The position numbers were made by a program, and so were the translations under genes. The notes beneath the pieces are model-generated. The model made no database searches. It had not been told where the DNA came from and was given only the letters and a program-made list of their open reading frames with translations. DNA of 64,000 bases from Escherichia coli 042 (GTDB lineage Bacteria > Pseudomonadota > Gammaproteobacteria > Enterobacterales > Enterobacteriaceae). Location of the stretch: NCBI RefSeq assembly GCF_000027125.1, contig NC_017626.1. One strand, given 5' to 3'. This document shows, piece after piece, positions 44,198 to 53,583 of this stretch (the stretch's first letter is position 1; each line of letters begins with the position of its first letter).

Positions 44198-45523
44198 ATG
44201 ACGTGGAAAGACAGACTTCAGGACGCGTCATTTCGCGGCGTGCCGTTTAAGGTTGAAGAAGAAAGTGCGGGAACCGGTCGCCGTGTGGAAACACATGAAT
44301 ACCCGAACCGCGACAAACCCTATACCGAAGACCTGGGGAAAATCACTTTTCGCCCGTCCATCACGGCTTATGTGGTGGGAGATGACTGCTTTGACCAGCG
44401 CGATCGCCTGATTGACGCGCTGAATAAACCCGGTCCCGGCACGCTTGTCCATCCGACATACGGTGAGCTGAAAGTCTGTGTTGACGGAGAAGTTCGGGTC
44501 AGCACATCGAAGAGTGAAGGGCGTATTGTCCGCTTTGACCTGAAGTTTGTCGAAGCGGGAGAACTCTCTTACCCCACTTCAGGTGCGGCGACGGCGCAGA
44601 CGCTGATGTCATCCTGTTCTGCACTGGATGACTGCATCAGTGACAGCTTCAGAGGTTTCAGTATCGATGGCGTGGCGGATTTCGTGCAGAACGACGTCGT
44701 CGGTAATGTCAGCACAATGCTTGGGTATGTTTCTGATGCGATGAAAGTGGTGGATTCTGCCGTATCGGATGCTGCCAGGCTGTTGCAGGGGGATATCTCG
44801 GTACTTCTGCCGCCACCATCGTCAGGCAAAAATCTCGTTGAGCAGGTGCAGAAAATGTGGCGTACCGGGAAACGCCTTTATGGTAACGCCAGCGACCTGG
44901 TCACCATGATCAAAACGCTTTCCGGTGTCAGCCTCGGCAGCGATCTGCAACCGCGCGGCGTCTGGAAAACGGACAGTAAAACCACCGCCACGGCTACGCA
45001 GCAGCGTAACGTGGTTGCCAGCACCCTTCGTACGACCGCAATCAGCGAAGCGGCGTATGCCGTCACCCGATTGCCTGCGCCAACAACTTCCGCGGTGATG
45101 CAGAATGCCGCAGTGGGGCAGGCAACAACACCTGCGCAGAGCACTGGCTGGCCTTCCGTCACGCATCCGGCACTGAACAATGCACCGACGGTGAAAAACA
45201 CAGTTGACCTGCCGACGTGGGAAGAACTGACTGACATTCGCGACACACTGAATACGGCAATTGATAAGGAGTTGTCCCGTACAACCAGTGATGCGCTGTT
45301 TCTGGCGCTGCGCCGGGTGAAAGCAGATCTGAATGCGGATATCAACACGCGCCTTGAACAGTCTGCACGGATCATTCAGCGCACGCCGGATGAGGTTTTA
45401 CCCGCGCTGGTGCTGGCGGCGACCTGGTTTGATAACGCGGCGCGTGACGCGGACATTATCCGGCGTAATGCCATTACGCATCCCGGATTTGTGCCGGTGA
45501 TCCCTCTGAAGGTGCCAGTGTAA
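44198..45523 (+). CDS. Mu N-like DNA circularisation/tail protein
   Basis: 441 aa; N-terminus WKDRLQDASFRGVPFKVEE...HEYPNRDKPY; position after tape measure. Confidence 0.75.
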   Translation: MTWKDRLQDASFRGVPFKVEEESAGTGRRVETHEYPNRDKPYTEDLGKITFRPSITAYVVGDDCFDQRDRLIDALNKPGPGTLVHPTYGELKVCVDGEVRVSTSKSEGRIVRFDLKFVEAGELSYPTSGAATAQTLMSSCSALDDCISDSFRGFSIDGVADFVQNDVVGNVSTMLGYVSDAMKVVDSAVSDAARLLQGDISVLLPPPSSGKNLVEQVQKMWRTGKRLYGNASDLVTMIKTLSGVSLGSDLQPRGVWKTDSKTTATATQQRNVVASTLRTTAISEAAYAVTRLPAPTTSAVMQNAAVGQATTPAQSTGWPSVTHPALNNAPTVKNTVDLPTWEELTDIRDTLNTAIDKELSRTTSDALFLALRRVKADLNADINTRLEQSARIIQRTPDEVLPALVLAATWFDNAARDADIIRRNAITHPGFVPVIPLKVPV

Positions 45524-46602
45524 TGAACGATAACGTCACGCTACGGGTAAATGGCCGGGAGTGGAATGGCTGGACATCGGTGCGCATCGGTGCCGGTGTT
45601 GAACGACTGGCGCGGGATTTCAGTGTGGAGATCACTCGCCAGTGGCCGGGAGATGAGGGTATCACCACGCTTCAGCCGCGCATTAAAAACGGTTCAAAAG
45701 TGGAAGTGCTGATTGGTGATGAGCTGGTGATCACCGGCTGGGTGGAGGCGACTCCCGTTCGTTACGATGCCCGTTCGGTCAGCACCGGTATTGCCGGACG
45801 TAGTCTGACGGCTGACCTGATTGACTGTGCAGCCGAACCGACACAGTTTAACGGACGCTCGCTGGTGCAGATTGCGCAGGCGCTTGCTGCGCCTTTCGGC
45901 ATTGAGGTGGTGAACAGCGGTGCGCCGTCGGGTGTTATTCCTGATGTTCAGCCTGATCACGGTGAAACGGTGATTGAGGTAATCAACAAAATACTCGGTC
46001 AGCAGCAGGCGCTGGCTTATGACGACCCGCACGGCAGGCTGGTGATTGGTGGTATTGGCTCAACGCGGGCACATACCGCGCTGGTACTCGGGGAAAACAT
46101 CCTTTCCTGCGATACGGAGAAGAGTATCCGGGAGCGGTTTTCTGTTTACCAGGTGGCGGGGCAGCGTGCCGGAAACGACGATGATTTCGGTGAGGCCACC
46201 ACCACCGCGCTGCGGGCCCGCACAGAGGACGCATTTATTGCCCGTTACCGTCCGATGTATATCAGGCAGACAGGACAGGCTACGGGGGCTGGCTGTATTG
46301 CCCGTGCGGACTTTGAAGCCCGACAACGGGCGGCGCGGACGGATGAAACCACCTATGTGGTGCAGGGCTGGCGACAGGGTAACGGTACGCTGTGGCAGCC
46401 CAACCAGCGGGTGATTGTCTTTGATCCGGTCTGTGGTTTCGACAACACCGAACTGCTTGTTTCGGAAGTCACGTTTACTCAGGACCAGAACGGCACCCTG
46501 ACGGAAATCCGTGTCGGCCCACCAGATGCTTATCTGCCTGAACCCGAAGCCCCCGGCGCGCGGAAAAAGAAAAAAGCCAGAGTACAGGAGGACCCGTTCT
46601 GA
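45523..46602 (+). CDS. Baseplate hub protein (Mu P-like)
   Basis: 359 aa in Mu-like baseplate gene order. Confidence 0.7.
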   Translation: MNDNVTLRVNGREWNGWTSVRIGAGVERLARDFSVEITRQWPGDEGITTLQPRIKNGSKVEVLIGDELVITGWVEATPVRYDARSVSTGIAGRSLTADLIDCAAEPTQFNGRSLVQIAQALAAPFGIEVVNSGAPSGVIPDVQPDHGETVIEVINKILGQQQALAYDDPHGRLVIGGIGSTRAHTALVLGENILSCDTEKSIRERFSVYQVAGQRAGNDDDFGEATTTALRARTEDAFIARYRPMYIRQTGQATGAGCIARADFEARQRAARTDETTYVVQGWRQGNGTLWQPNQRVIVFDPVCGFDNTELLVSEVTFTQDQNGTLTEIRVGPPDAYLPEPEAPGARKKKKARVQEDPF

Positions 46603-47150
46603 TGAGGACGATTGAAGCCATGCAGCGACAACTCCTCGGCCTGATTGGGCGGGCCGTGGTGAAAAGCATCAGTGCCGCCACGAAATGTCAGACCGTGGAT
46701 GTGTCCCTGATTGCCGGTGAACCCAAAGCCGGGGTTGAACATCTTGAACCCTACGGTTTTACTGCAAGGGCAAACATCGGTGCGGAAGCGGTGGTGTTGT
46801 TTCCGGATGGCGACCGTTCTCATGCGGTGGTTGTTACGGTGTCGGACCGTCGCTACCGCCTGAAAGGGCTGCAGACGGGGGAGGTGGCTGTCTATGACGA
46901 TCAGGGGCAGTCCGTGACGCTGACCCGGGAGGGGATTGTGGTGGACGGTGCAGGTAAAACGATCACGTTTCGCAATGCACCTGAAGCACGTTTTGAAATG
47001 GACCTGGAAGTGACAGGACAGGTGAAAGACCTGTGCGACTCCGGCGGCACCACCATGTCAGCGATGCGGCTTGCCTATAACGGGCATCGTCACAGAGAGA
47101 ACGGTCAGGGCAGTAACACCGACAAACCTGATAAATCGATGGAGGCATGA
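46602..47150 (+). CDS. Baseplate spike/assembly protein V-like
   Basis: 182 aa. Confidence 0.7.
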   Translation: MRTIEAMQRQLLGLIGRAVVKSISAATKCQTVDVSLIAGEPKAGVEHLEPYGFTARANIGAEAVVLFPDGDRSHAVVVTVSDRRYRLKGLQTGEVAVYDDQGQSVTLTREGIVVDGAGKTITFRNAPEARFEMDLEVTGQVKDLCDSGGTTMSAMRLAYNGHRHRENGQGSNTDKPDKSMEA

Positions 47151-47575
47151 TGGAACTGTGGCTGACGGTGAACGGTAAACGCACCTGCGCCAGCGCACCG
47201 CTGGATCCGCTGACCCGCGCCGTGGTGATTTCCCTGTTTACCTGGCGGCGGGCGGAGCCTGATGACAATGCCGACGTCCCGATGGGATGGTGGGGGGATA
47301 CCTGGCCTGAGGTACAGAATGACCGTTACGGCTCCCGACTGTGGCTGCTTCAGCGCAGCAAACTGACCAATCAACTGGTGCAGACGGTAAGGGGGTATAT
47401 CCGCGAATGCCTGCAATGGATGATTGATGACGGCGTGGTGTCCCGTATTGATCTGGATATCCGCCGCACCGGGATTAATGAACTGGGTAACAGTATCACT
47501 CTCTGGCGTCGTGACGGACCGGTAATGATTTCTTTTGATGATCTGTGGAGTGCGATAACGCATGGCGGACAGTGA
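47147..47575 (+). CDS. Baseplate protein (Mu gp46 / W-like)
   Basis: 142 aa. Confidence 0.65.
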   Translation: MMELWLTVNGKRTCASAPLDPLTRAVVISLFTWRRAEPDDNADVPMGWWGDTWPEVQNDRYGSRLWLLQRSKLTNQLVQTVRGYIRECLQWMIDDGVVSRIDLDIRRTGINELGNSITLWRRDGPVMISFDDLWSAITHGGQ

Positions 47576-48620
47576 ATTTCAGCGCCCGACGCTGGCAGAA
47601 AATATCAGTATGCTCCGTAACGATTTATTCGCCAGGCTGGACGTCAGCGACACGCTCCGGCGCATGGATGAAGACGTGCGGGCAAAGGTGTATGCGGCGG
47701 CGCTGCATACGGTTTACGGGTACATCGATTATCTGGCAATGAACATGCTGCCTGACCTGTGCGATGAGTCCTGGCTGGCGCGACATGCTGCGATGAAACG
47801 GTGTCCGCGCAAGGGGGCCACGGCTGCCAGCGGGTATATGCGCTGGGAAGGTGTCAGCGATGGCCTGAAGGTGACCGCCGGAAGTGTTATTCAGCGCGAT
47901 GACCTGGTTCAGTACACGGCAACTGCCGATGCAACCAGCACCGGTGGTGTCCTGCGCGTGCCGATCGCCTGCTCAAGTGCAGGCGCGGTCGGTAACGCTG
48001 ACGACGGTACGTCATTAATCCTGGTCACGCCGGTTAATGGTCTGCCGTCTTCCGGCGAGGCAGATACCCTGACAGGTGGATTTGATACTGAAGAGCTGGA
48101 AACGTGGCGCGCCCGCGTCATTGAGCGGTATTACTGGACGCCTCAGGGCGGGGCTGACGGGGACTATGTCGTCTGGGCTAAAGAAGTGCCCGGCATTACC
48201 CGCGCATGGACATACCGACACTGGATGGGAACGGGGACTGTCGGTGTGATGATTGCCAGCAGTGACCTGATTAACCCCATTCCGGAAGAATCAACGGAAA
48301 CGGCGGCAAGACAACATATCGAGCCACTGGCCCCGGTGGCAGGCTCTGATTTGTATGTATTCAGGCCGGTGGCGCACAAAGTGGATTTTCATATCCGCGT
48401 GACGCCGGACACACCGGAAATACGGGCTGCCATCACCGCGGAGTTGCGTTCATTCCTGCTGCGTGATGGTTATCCGCAGGGAGAGCTTAAGGTATCGCGT
48501 ATCAGTGAAGCGATTTCCGGTGCGAACGGGGAATACAGCCATCAGTTGCTTGCTCCGGCGGACAATATCTCCATTGCAAAAAATGAACTGGCGGTTCTGG
48601 GGACGATTTCATGGACGTGA
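47562..48620 (+). CDS. Baseplate J-like protein
   Basis: 352 aa. Confidence 0.75.
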
Positions 48621-49195
48621 CAAACGATGATTACATCCGTCTGTTGTCGGCACTGTTGCCCCCTGGTCCGGCGTGGTCAGCCAGCGATCCGGCGATTGCC
48701 GGTGCGGCACCGTCATTAACCCGTGCTCATCAGCGTGCGGATGCCCTGATGCGGGAGCTGGATCCGCGCACCACCACCGAACTGATAAACCGCTGGGAGC
48801 GTCTGTGCGGCCTGCCGGATGAATGTATTCCGGCAGGGACGCAGACCCTTCGCCAGCGTCAGCAACGGCTGGATGCGAAGGTTAACCTGGCGGGTGGCAT
48901 CAATGAGGATTTTTACCTTGCGCAGCTTGCTGCCCTGGGCAGACCAGATGCCACCATCACGCGATACGACAAAAGCACGTTCACCTGCTCATCGGCCTGT
49001 ACTGACGCGGTGAATGCGCCGGAATGGCGGTATTACTGGCAGGTCAATATGCCAGCTGCCACCAACACCACCTGGATGACATGTGGCGATCCCTGTGATT
49101 CCGCACTGCGTATCTGGGGGGACACCGTTGTCGAGTGCGTGCTTAACAAACTCTGCCCGTCGCATACCTACGTAATTTTTAAATATCCGGAGTAA
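48611..49195 (+). CDS. Tail protein (Mu gp48 / P2 I-like)
   Basis: 194 aa. Confidence 0.65.
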
Positions 49196-49198
49196 TTC

Positions 49199-50131
49199 AT
49201 GCATCGTATAGACACGAAAACCGCGCAGAAGGATAAGTTCGGCGCGGGTAAGAACGGTTTTACCCGTGGTAACCCCCAGACCGGCACGCCTGCCACCGAT
49301 CTGGATGATGACTACTTTGACATGTTGCAGGAGGAGCTTTGCAGCGTGGTGGAGGCATCCGGTGCCAGCCTGGAGAAGGGGCGGCATGACCAGTTGCTTA
49401 CAGCGCTTCGTGAGCTGCTGTTAAGCCGCAAGAATCCGTTTGGCGATATCAAATCGGATGGCACGGTGAAAACGGCTCTCGAAAACCTTGGTTTGGGAGA
49501 TGGCTCGGGGCGTTACAGCAAAACTGTCGTTTTTTCATCGTCGGGTTCATATACGTGGCCAGCTGACGTAAAACGAATTGACGTTATTCTGACTGCGGCG
49601 GGCGGCGGTGGCGGTGGATGTAACGCGGAGAACGCAAATCAGACATTTTCAGGGGCTGGCGGAGGAGCCGGAGGTACTGTTTTTGCCACTATTTATGCGA
49701 CAGACAACGATGCCGGGCCAGGAACCTATACAGTGACAATTGGCAGCGGTGGTAGTGGTGCCAATGGGGCAGGGTCTGGAAATAATGGCGGTAATAGTTC
49801 GTTCATGACATTAACTGCGCTCGGCGGCCAGGGTGGGCAATGGGGCGGCGCTACAAATACCGCTGGCGGGCGCGGTGGCTCAGGCTCTGGCGGTTATAAA
49901 ACTGAACAAGGCGGAGACGGTTCAGACGGACAGGCGGGCCAGGCGCTATTAGTAGGCAATGGGGCATCGAGCTATTGGGGTGGCGGCGGCCGCGCTGGGC
50001 AACTGAGCGGTAATCCTGGAGTTTGCTCTGGCTCCGGCGGCGGGGGTGCATACGATAATAGCTATTCACACACGTCAGGACGTGGCGGGCACGGAGCTAA
50101 TGGCGTGCTGGTAATTCGGGAGTACATGTAA
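49199..50131 (+). CDS. Tail fiber protein with glycine-rich C-terminal domain
   Basis: 310 aa; conserved N-terminal region then Gly-rich low-complexity C-terminus. Confidence 0.8.
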
Positions 50132-50536
50132 ATGAATGATGTTTATGCAGTTGTTGATAATAACGTTGTTATTAATGTCATTATCTGGGACGGAATTTCT
50201 GAATGGAAACCAGAGGCTGGTAATTTAGTTCCGTTAAACGGCGATGCTGGCATCGGTTGGTCATATTCAGACGGAGTATTTACCGCGCCACCTCCCCCAG
50301 AACGCTCTCACAACGCGTTAGTTGCGGAGGCTGAGCTGCAGAAATCAGCACTACTGACCGTAGCAAATAACGCAATAGCACCGCTGCAGGATGCCGTTGA
50401 TTTGGAAATGGCGACAGACGATGAACAGACGTTACTGCTGGCGTGGAAAAAATACAGGGTACTGCTGAACCGTGTTGATACCTCAGCGGCACCCGAAATA
50501 GAGTGGCCTACGCAACCGGGGGAGCGGGCCAGTTGA
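50132..50536 (+). CDS. Tail fiber assembly chaperone (Tfa)
   Basis: 134 aa with Tfa C-terminal motif [28 protein letters not shown]. Confidence 0.8.
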
Positions 50537-50657
50537 TATCAGGCGCAGGGGCAGCATCAACTGCTGTCACTGCGTCGATGTAGTCGAGTACCGCATTCAG
50601 CCGCCTTTTTTCATCATCAGTCAGTTTGCGGCCTACACCTCTCCGTTGACATCTTTG
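50511..50657 (-). pseudogene. Relic of a second, inverted tail-fiber-assembly gene (C-terminal 49 codons, no start)
   Basis: Minus-strand open frame ...[39 protein letters not shown] mirrors the Tfa C-terminal motif; overlaps tfa 3' end convergently. Confidence 0.45.
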
Positions 50658-50834
50658 TTATATGGTACAACTGCGCAGAGGCCTGTCTCTCCAACTGTGC
50701 CAGTTGAATACTACGATACAACGCTCGGCCTTCCTATTTGGTGGAACATAACCACATCCACATGGAAAAGAGCTGATGGTGCAGATGTATAATTCTGGTG
50801 CCGCGCATGCGGCACCAATAAAAAACATATTAAA

Positions 50835-52310
50835 CTAAAGTGAATCTATTCCATTTTTCCAAATAAGAACTTTTTTGTCTTGTATTTTATGAGTGCTATC
50901 AGGCTGCCCAAACTGTTTTATGGCCTTTTCCTCTTGCTCTACATCATCAGCAATTAAAAAATTAGCTCCTTTTTGGTACCATTCTTTTTTTGATAACCAA
51001 TTATATGGTGTGAATCTATCACCATACGACTCAAATGGAGCTACGTTGATATCACTAAATCCAGCAACAGATGATGCAAACCAAAATGATGCATAACCTC
51101 TTTGTAGTTTATTTTTTATTAAGAAATCTCTTAATTCTATTGTAATATCATTTTTATTAACAATGTTTTTTGTTGTTGCCATCGTTGGCAACGATAACGC
51201 AATAACGATTAATGATATTAGTAAATTTGTCTTCACTGGTAAGGAGAAAGAATTTCTAGCAATCACAATTGACATGAAAATAAATGTTGGGACTATGTAT
51301 CTAATTGAGAAAAGATTTGTTGGCCTGTCACTTGAAACATAGGCAATCAACATGACTAATGATGATACAATAAGAACCTGGTCAATAAAATCAATTTCTT
51401 TAAATTTAAGAATGTTTTTATAAGATAAAAATAAGAATACAAAAATGAAAAACACCTTTATCATGGTGAATAATGAGTTAAAGCTACCTATCTCCATTCC
51501 AAACGCGTACCCACCAAAAAATTTGAATACGCCCATGATAACAAGAGATATGTTGCTTGTTATTTGTTGAAACTCTACTATGTGAGGTTTGGTTATGCCT
51601 GGCAGGTTAAATCCACCAAGCTTAATGAATATAAATGATATGATCTCAGCAATAAATATAGATGATATAGTGAAAACCAACAATAACAAATCATTAGTAT
51701 TCAACGAATCTCTTTTCATTAGAGAAGCATACATTCTATATATGCAAACAAAAACTATAGGTATTATAAAGGCATATTTAGATATATCATCACTAAAAAC
51801 AAGCAACGATAACATAAATACATATGGAAAAAGTAATTTTAAATCATTTTTCTTTCTGTATCTATCTATTATTAGTATGATCGCCAGCATGTAAATGTAC
51901 GCACCAATATGTATACATGCTATAAGCATTATACTTGATGAGAAAACCGTTGGAATTCCAAATACAGAAAGAACAGGCCATAACGATGCCCTACTTTTAG
52001 TATGAGAGATATATAGCGATAGTGTTACTAATATAGACATGAAAACTCCAGGCACAATATAGTACAGATTTTCATTAAATCCTATTATTTTTATCGCTAT
52101 AGCATATGGTATTATTTCTGTGAAATAGAATGATACAGTTGATAAATCCCACCCACTGAGAAAAATATTTCCTTCAGTAATATCCCTTGCCTCTCTGAAT
52201 GAAGACATGACATCTGAGTTTGGAATTATGTTTTTAGCAATCATTGAGTAAATTATTGATAATACAATAAATGTTGCCAGCCAATATAAAAGCTCAAGCT
52301 TCTTGCTCAT
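50835..52310 (-). CDS. Serotype-specific O-antigen glucosyltransferase (GtrC-type)
   Basis: 491-aa polytopic membrane protein, strongly AT-rich, downstream of gtrA-gtrB in same operon. Confidence 0.75.
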
Positions 52311-53224
52311 TTTTTACCCTTAAGTACATACTTTGGACGCTGCTTAACTTCAATGTAAATTCTACCAATATACTCACCGAGCACTCCAATCCCAATTAAC
52401 TGGATGCCGCCAAGAAATAATATTGATACAAGAATTGAAGGGTATCCAGGTACATTATTACCAAAAATTAATTTATCAATTATCATCCATGAACCGTATG
52501 TAAATGATATACATGCAATAAATAACCCAATATAGGTCCACATGCGAAGCGGGAATGTTGAGAAGCTAGTGATCCCTTCCAGCGCCAAGTTCCATAGCTT
52601 CCATCCATTGAACTTTGTGCTTCCTGCAACGCGTTCTGCTCGCGCATATTCTACGACATCGGTTCGACCACCAACCCAGCTCAGCACACCCTTCATAAAC
52701 AGGTTTCGTTCTGGCATGAGCTTAATATTTTCTACTACTTCGCGAGACATGAGCCGGAAGTCGCCAACATTCTCTTCTATCTGAGGGTTGCTGATTTTGT
52801 TATGAAGTTTATAGAACCACTCAGCAGATTTACGCTTCAGCCTGCTGTCAGTGGAGCGGTCAGAGCGTTTAGCCAGAACCATATCTGCACCGGCCTGCCA
52901 TTTCTCTATCAAGTGAGGAATAACTTCGATAGGGTCTTGCAGATCAACGTCAATCGGGATAATTGCCTCCCCGGTAGCATGGTCCAGACCTGCGAACAGG
53001 GCGGGTTCTTTGCCGAAGTTACGTGTGAACGACAGCGAAACCACAAGCGGGTCGGCAACAGCGAGCTCGTTGATAATTGATTCTGTAGCGTCTTTGCTGC
53101 CATCGTTTATGAAGACTATCTCGACTTCATGCTGCTGAAGCCCTTCAAATTCGCGCACAGTTTTATAAAAAATAGGTATCGTGGCCTCTTCGTTAAAGAC
53201 CGGAACGACTAAAGAAATTTTCAT
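52307..53224 (-). CDS. gtrB: Bactoprenol glucosyltransferase GtrB
   Basis: 305 aa; GT2 N-terminal domain ([13 protein letters not shown]...DGSKD) plus C-terminal TM helices. Confidence 0.9.
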
Positions 53225-53583
53225 TTCGCATCCCTAAAGACAATGAACTTTGAATAGACGAAACCGCACACCAGGCTGATGGCGGAGAAGGTGACAAGAG
53301 TTATCATCGGGGGAAGTGCGCATCTATCAGCAGCCCATCCAACAGTAGCACTGAGTGTTCCCATGAACCCGACATATAACATGTAGCGCATCGTTGTAGT
53401 TGATGCTTTGAATGTGAATTTTGCATTCGCGAAGAAGCTAAAACTCACAGCCACAACGAAACCTGCGAAGTTTGCCAGAGCCTGATTGGTATGCGCGGCA
53501 TAGATACATACACCAAAAACCACCCAGTGTATAAGTGTGTTCAGCACACCAATCGAGGTGTACCTTGCAAATATATTTAACAT
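53221..53583 (-). CDS. gtrA: GtrA flippase-like small membrane protein
   Basis: 120 aa, four TM segments, first gene of gtr operon. Confidence 0.88.

Follow-up and report, generated by a model that had tools for sequence, protein, structure and literature searches.

Remains of a convergent tail-fibre assembly gene and of a tailspike gene at a mosaic joint in an Escherichia coli 042 prophage, the first a probable relic of an e14-type inversion switch

The DNA analysed (the window) comprised 64,000 nucleotides of the Escherichia coli 042 chromosome (NC_017626.1) and contained a prophage with Mu-type baseplate genes (45523-49195) and a contractile tail of the SfV/e14 type. RefSeq genomes with near-identical loci carried the same gene annotations, followed downstream by ybhB-bioA. 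The features of the tail-fibre region and its surroundings are given below with the evidence used for each.

49199..50131, plus strand: tail-fibre gene, 310 aa (ORF; identity to e14 stfP; PGAP labels in sister genomes)
49477..49500, no strand assigned: orphan Pin/Gin-type crossover site TCTCGAAAACCTTGGTTTGGGAGA (sole consensus match; identity to the e14 left site; matrix score)
50132..50536, plus strand: tfa, intact tail-fibre assembly gene, 134 aa (ORF; PHROG 188; Mu U alignment)
50508..50633, minus strand: tfa' relic, the last 41 codons and stop of a 200-aa TfaE-type gene (alignments, PHROG, Pfam, PGAP)
50634..50651, no strand assigned: joint of two 5'-truncated genes (homology limits of tfa' and tailspike)
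50652..50792, plus strand: tailspike 3' stub, the C-terminal ~44 residues and stop (match to PDB 6NW9/5W6F; CBA120 orf212 C-terminal end)
50797..50816, no strand assigned: 8-bp GC-rich hairpin GGTGCCGC-GCAT-GCGGCACC, between stub and gtrC (inverted-repeat search)
50835..53583, minus strand: O-antigen modification cargo, consisting of a gtrC-type gene (491 aa), gtrB (305 aa) and gtrA (120 aa) (ORFs; PGAP names)

The fibre gene was composed of a constant StfP-type N-terminal part (to ~49476) and a glycine-rich variable part (from ~49501). Its first ~300 nt were present in 1865 of 5426 complete E. coli genomes, and the full stretch 49199-50840 in 66 of the 5426. The variable part (49501-50131) was a glycine-rich domain of the GGxGG type that occurred, among complete E. 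coli genomes, only in the locked cassette (66 genomes). In sister genomes the intact 310-aa ORF (L001 6001-6933) had been cut by PGAP into two annotations: the upstream one is a pseudogene labelled "stfP, partial", and the downstream one, in the same frame, is a "glycine-rich domain-containing protein" that begins at a TTG (window 49493) within the crossover site. This split appears to be an artefact of annotating across the mosaic joint, and the joint at the crossover site accounts for it. The adjoining tfa was intact (PHROG 188, E 4e-35) and aligned with Mu U at E 1e-14. Within tfa, the Rfam search returned a sub-threshold match to IS009 (RF02111; 50299-50487, plus strand; 48.8 bits, gathering score 117, E 1.4e-9) and nothing else; the match probably reflects tfa-gene homology of the family seed, not an RNA. 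In the NCBIfam profile search no match was obtained for the tfa' relic, the tailspike stub, tfa, the fibre gene or gtrC. Megablast of 50100-50840 against the phage collection gave no matches, and a distant DNA search of that collection gave matches at the level of tfa only.

On the minus strand, the open frame 50511-50657 spans 49 codons between an in-frame stop upstream (50658-60) and its own stop (50508-10), and contains no ATG, GTG or TTG yielding at least 30 aa. In the original prediction, made from the sequence alone, this frame was read as a start-less relic of an inverted tfa gene, 49 codons long and carrying the C-terminal motif of Tfa. The motif and the missing start were borne out, homology setting in at TfaE residue 160; the extent of the frame was correct, but Tfa ancestry is confined to the final 41 codons (50511-50633), the 8 before them being open by chance. 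The relic was 68% identical to residues 160-200 of e14 TfaE (tblastn, E 2e-12), 69% identical to the Tfa of a P2-like prophage, 64% to K-12 TfaS and 43% to the neighbouring tfa of the window. Alignment with Mu U/U' and other Tfa proteins, suggested as a check, gave Smith-Waterman z values of 26 (TfaE), 10.5 (Tfa of the window itself) and 5-6 (Mu U/U'), and the observed score was matched by 0 of 1000 shuffles; the similarity to Tfa C-termini, on whose statistics the prediction had been staked, is far above chance. Profile searches matched the relic to Pfam Caudo_TAP (PF02413; E 5.2e-10, model positions 95-130 of 131) and to the PHROG tfa families 188, 105, 136 and 3792 (E 2e-13 to 3e-6), in each case at the C-terminal end of the profile. 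The conserved C-terminal domain of Caudo_TAP and the PHROG tfa families is thus present, and the start codon and the N-terminal ~160 residues of a complete gene of the TfaE type are missing. The relic is a pseudogene fragment and not a member gene of the tail-fibre assembly family. By DNA alignment the tfa' homology ended at ~50634-50636, and at its other end the relic overlapped the 3' end of tfa (50132-50536) by 29 nt. The relic is already known, as public RefSeq annotation marks a partial tfa pseudogene: at its position in sister genomes L001, L002, L009 and L010, PGAP places a piece worded "tail fiber assembly protein, incomplete, missing N-terminus". Its counterpart in K-12 is tfaS.

A consensus search for Pin/Gin-type crossover sites returned a single match in 64 kb, with 0 expected by chance. 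The site lies within the fibre gene and encodes ENLGLG; the e14 P segment has the identical 24-mer as its left site, likewise 278 nt into stfP. With a matrix built from six known sites, 49477-49500 scored 33.4 (real sites, 27-33) and the next best position in the window 9.2. Ungapped nucleotide identity between window and e14 was 96.8% before the site, 100% in the site and 33% after it; for SfIV the corresponding values were 97.5%, 100% and 24%. Because identity breaks exactly at the site, the crossover site was assigned as the constant/variable joint of the fibre gene. No second crossover site was found in 64 kb at up to 3 mismatches, and in 50400-51000 neither a second site or half-site (by matrix) nor a matching inverted repeat was detected. 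PinE, Gin and the I3 invertase were without a tblastn match in the 64-kb window at E<=1, in line with the predicted lack of a serine invertase gene. It had also been proposed to look for flanking inverted repeats and for an invertase in related prophages; the second site is absent from the window, and e14 and E. coli I3 each hold two sites and an invertase. An invertible segment is represented by a crossover site at the constant/variable joint of the fibre gene, with the second inverted site and the adjacent serine invertase both absent; in place of two opposed sets of variable part and tfa, there are 41 codons of a second tfa and no alternative fibre end.

One orientation was seen in each of the 66 cassette-bearing genomes, with constant and variable parts contiguous and the relic also present. 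The fibre is apparently locked in one form. Complete E. coli genomes contained no intact switch with the glycine-rich variable part, so that the immediate ancestor is one that we infer and not one observed. Descent of the fibre locus from a lost inversion switch, as an ordinary decayed member of the Pin/Gin cassette family, is supported. The same descent had been proposed from the relic in the original prediction, and it now draws on the identity of the orphan site with the e14 left site and on the erosion series described below.

In the Hin, Gin and Pin systems the 5' part of the invertase gene holds a Fis-bound enhancer, which is needed in cis. With the invertase gene missing this enhancer should be missing here as well. 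Its loss bears on the very unlikely alternative that the orphan site is still live and that PinE, PinQ and PinR of co-resident prophages recombine it with sites in other prophages, which would yield chimeric fibres or large chromosomal inversions and make the locus one arm of a distributed switch. The site does match the functional e14 left site perfectly, and roughly one in three complete E. coli genomes carries the constant fibre part. The e14 inverted repeats bound a 1797-bp P segment that is inverted by PinE and also, in trans, by PinQ of prophage Qin (PMC12529663). Against a live site, both partner site and invertase gene have been lost, presumably together with the enhancer, none of the 66 complete genomes with the cassette had a rearrangement at the site, and inversions were reported in e14 only and not in CPS-53 (PMC12529663), a prophage with the orphan-site layout of the window. 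The wider form of this idea is that an orphan site in every examined SfV/SfI/SfII/SfIV/CPS-53-type element could be paired by the Pin proteins of other prophages with sites elsewhere in the chromosome, as a genome-wide fibre-shuffling or anti-phage system, likened to the one just described for PinQ and e14 (PMC12529663); to this we likewise give little credence.

The prophages compared retained the following parts of a switch (tfa' residues numbered on TfaE).

e14: tfa' residues 1-200 kept; 2 crossover sites; PinE
E. coli I3 (P2-like): tfa' full; 2 crossover sites; invertase present
SfIV: tfa' 30-200 kept, cut beside an IS; 1 crossover site; no invertase
CPS-53 (tfaS): tfa' 105-199 kept; 1 crossover site; no invertase
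Window and L002: tfa' ~160-200 kept; 1 crossover site; no invertase
SfI and SfII: no tfa' kept; 1 crossover site; no invertase

The second crossover site of e14 lies in stfE, adjoining pinE, and every decayed locus compared carried O-antigen modification cargo where e14 has stfE-pinE. Exactly one Pin-type site was found in every serotype-converting SfV-type element examined, and loss of the switch accounts for the single locked fibre form in this widespread prophage family. The 29-nt tail-to-tail overlap of tfa and tfa' was common to e14 and I3 (intact), SfIV and CPS-53 (decayed) and the window. Its exact coordinates are 50508-50536 in the window, L003 5518-5546, L004 5169-5197, L005 6078-6106 and L011 4967-4995; it encodes a W-P motif on each strand by way of a quasi-palindrome (TGGCC...GGCCA), the loci being otherwise diverged.

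The overlap speaks against the reading that the convergent tfa fragment is debris of an unrelated recombination, reversed by chance, with no switch involved. Phage tail-fibre regions are highly mosaic and the relic is just 43% identical to the neighbouring tfa, as such debris might be; yet the same overlap recurs in four other loci, two of which are intact switches, and the crossover site sits at the expected joint in the fibre gene. Shared overlap and site position would be an unlikely coincidence, and unrelated debris is thus considered extremely improbable.

With the lost switch as the preferred reading, the erosion series also bears on Shigella phage SfIV, in which ORF-22 (L004 5169-5693) corresponds to TfaE residues 30-200, cut beside an IS element. 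The SfIV paper reads ORF-22 as an extra assembly protein that is unique to SfIV and might affect host range (PMC3851460). Its place in the series, the one crossover site and the lack of an invertase suggest that ORF-22 is more likely to be a relic than to influence host range, which would correct the view that such a convergent fragment is a further working gene for fibre assembly. The practical weight of the finding is small.

The original prediction had pointed to a further start-less frame on the plus strand, ending LGLPIWWNITTSTWKRADGADV before a stop at 50790-92, as a possible second relic. The frame is a real relic, but of a tailspike: it is not part of the switch and came with the gtr cargo. 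Its product, LYGTTAQRPVSPTVPVEYYDTTLGLPIWWNITTSTWKRADGADV, aligned with residues 584-627 of Kuttervirus CBA120 TSP3 (PDB 6NW9/5W6F) at E 7e-14, both ending in GADV, and it also matched the C-terminal end of CBA120 orf212; tailspike homology begins at 50652-50664. Of a beta-helix tailspike, the C-terminal module GTTAQRP...YYDTTLG.PIWW is present in the stub, and the beta-helix body and N-terminal particle-binding domain are absent, the sequence upstream being the antisense of the tfa' relic. The module was found in 284 representative proteins at E<=1e-3, mostly at the C-terminus, sometimes in tandem and sometimes as a small stand-alone protein. These ~40 residues end the tailspikes of very different phages, occur in up to 8 tandem copies, and make up stand-alone proteins of 55-110 aa (including L007 2824-3141 and L013 540-764). 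No Pfam or NCBIfam model covers the module. A word-indexed protein search with the stub returned copies of the stub itself only, and its full-length parents were found only by exhaustive search of representative proteins. Assignment of the stub to an inverted piece of the alternative fibre end was rejected: the 5' part of tfa' would be expected after the stub, and the distance from stub to gtrC, 42 nt, is too short for it.

The two stubs meet head-to-head across ~18 nt (50634-51), both without their 5' parts. The joint sequence resembles neither parent and is common to all variants examined, so it was probably made once. Beyond the stub, the hairpin at 50797..50816 received no canonical terminator call. 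At the start of hairpin and cargo the GC content fell from ~50-59% to ~32%. The 491-aa gtrC-type membrane protein (50835-52310, minus strand) is encoded in this low-GC DNA (~32%); a tblastn search of 50,697 phage records found no match to it, and the sole relative found, at 71% DNA identity, was on metagenome contig L016.

Full-length beta-helix tailspikes with the end seen in the stub were located on two metagenomic contigs, typed only loosely, that represent the donor arrangement. L016 carries a 659-aa tailspike with the stub-type end, followed by convergent genes of 492, 305 (Glycos_transf_2) and 120 aa (GtrA); its gtrC and gtrB were 71% identical to window 50848-53280 over 2448 nt. L017 carries a 679-aa tailspike with the stub-type end, followed by a convergent 438-aa gtrC-type gene; the last 84 nt of this tailspike, the hairpin and gtrC were 86% identical to sister prophage L009 over 1753 nt. 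L009 itself was mosaic, window-like (93-100%) to ~50722 and then L017-like (90-97%) through stop, hairpin and cargo, with the switch point inside the conserved YYDTTLGLPIW core. L010 had another 3' variant of the stub, ending ...WQRADGTNT as in the L016 tailspike, and L002 kept the stub with an acyltransferase and intS as cargo. The tailspike stub belongs to the import of the gtr cargo and not to the switch. The conserved C-terminal module of tailspikes acts as a homology handle for the exchange of O-antigen modification cassettes between phages with tailspikes and those with contractile tails.

Despite divergence, the stub frame was kept in L001, L002 and L010; in L009 it was broken by a 4-nt deletion, so that the stub is without consistent selection at the protein level, and the kept frame in L010 is explained by recent import from an intact tailspike gene. 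In K-12, ryeG/yodE of CPS-53 (L005 5498-5644), which encodes a toxic 48-aa protein, is syntenic to window 50646-50792. Homology of the plus-strand ORF to YodE/RyeG was rejected, the sequences being unrelated. By analogy, one or both stubs could still be working small genes, the 48-codon plus-strand ORF (TTG 50646) giving a module-only or toxic peptide of the RyeG/YodE kind, since YodE is of equal length (48 aa), has the same relative orientation, is flanked by a gtrC-type gene and a tfa' relic, and has a similar 8-bp GC hairpin after it, and since stand-alone 55-110 aa proteins with the tailspike module exist and three sister genomes keep the frame. The chance of this was judged slim: there is no sequence similarity to YodE, no Shine-Dalgarno motif was seen before the TTG, the promoter and terminator search gave no site above background favouring expression of either stub, the frame is broken in L009, and its retention in L010 is explained by import. 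Neither stub is likely to make a protein.

Taken together, the locus is very probably a double fossil at a mosaic joint, in which the remnant of an e14-type switch abuts an imported tailspike stub with its gtr cargo; the region is one of ordinary phage mosaic decay. The ancestor would have had, in order, a constant fibre part, a crossover site and a variable part with tfa, followed in convergent orientation by tfa' and its alternative variable part, and then by the other crossover site and an invertase gene. One illegitimate recombination would then have fused tfa' at codon ~160 to the terminal ~45 codons of a tailspike gene, the donor presumably being another serotype-converting phage. In that event the locus would have lost 80% of tfa' together with the invertase, its second site and the alternative fibre end, and gained the tailspike stub, the hairpin and the gtr cargo; the left crossover site would have survived only by virtue of lying in fibre coding sequence. 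The stub would later have served as homology for cargo swaps (different gtrC types, the acyltransferase) with phages carrying full-length tailspikes. The homologies, the single site, the absence of the invertase, the joint common to the variants and the mosaic switch were observed directly; how many events there were, and in what order, we infer. Two abutting 5'-truncated genes are most simply explained by one illegitimate event, and stepwise deletions may have acted instead. Counting against this history, the nearest intact tfa' is just 68-69% identical.

Among known systems, CBA120 TSP3 (6NW9/5W6F; PHROG 20787, 7173) shares with the stub its last 44 residues and the same GADV end; the stub is this module only and differs in having neither the beta-helix body nor the N-terminal anchor. 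CPS-53 with tfaS and SfIV with ORF-22 resemble the window in a single-site fibre gene, tfa, a convergent 5'-truncated tfa', O-antigen cargo and the lack of an invertase. They differ in retaining more of tfa' (95 and 171 residues, respectively, against 41 in the window), and their truncation points and neighbours also differ, with an IS element in SfIV and ryeG/yodE in CPS-53. The Mu G/Gin, Cin and Hin systems have the same architecture and logic, the crossover site being placed inside the fibre gene where constant and variable parts meet; NLGL is encoded by the site in both Mu and the window, and Mu gixL gives QNLGLQ at the equivalent place. The Mu-G-like model of the original prediction is upheld in this architecture and not in its choice of relative, as protein similarity to Mu is weak (relic against U/U', z 5-6), Mu U and U' do not overlap, and Mu is intact. 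Among intact systems the nearest model is the e14 P segment with PinE; in this cryptic prophage of K-12 the order is stfP-tfaP, convergent tfaE-stfE, then pinE. Relative to e14, the window is without tfa' residues 1-159, stfE, the right site and pinE, its variable part is a different, glycine-rich module, and its gtr cargo stands in place of e14 pinE and mcrA. The two agree in the constant fibre DNA (97%), the identical left site, the 29-nt tfa/tfa' overlap and the TfaE C-terminus (68%).
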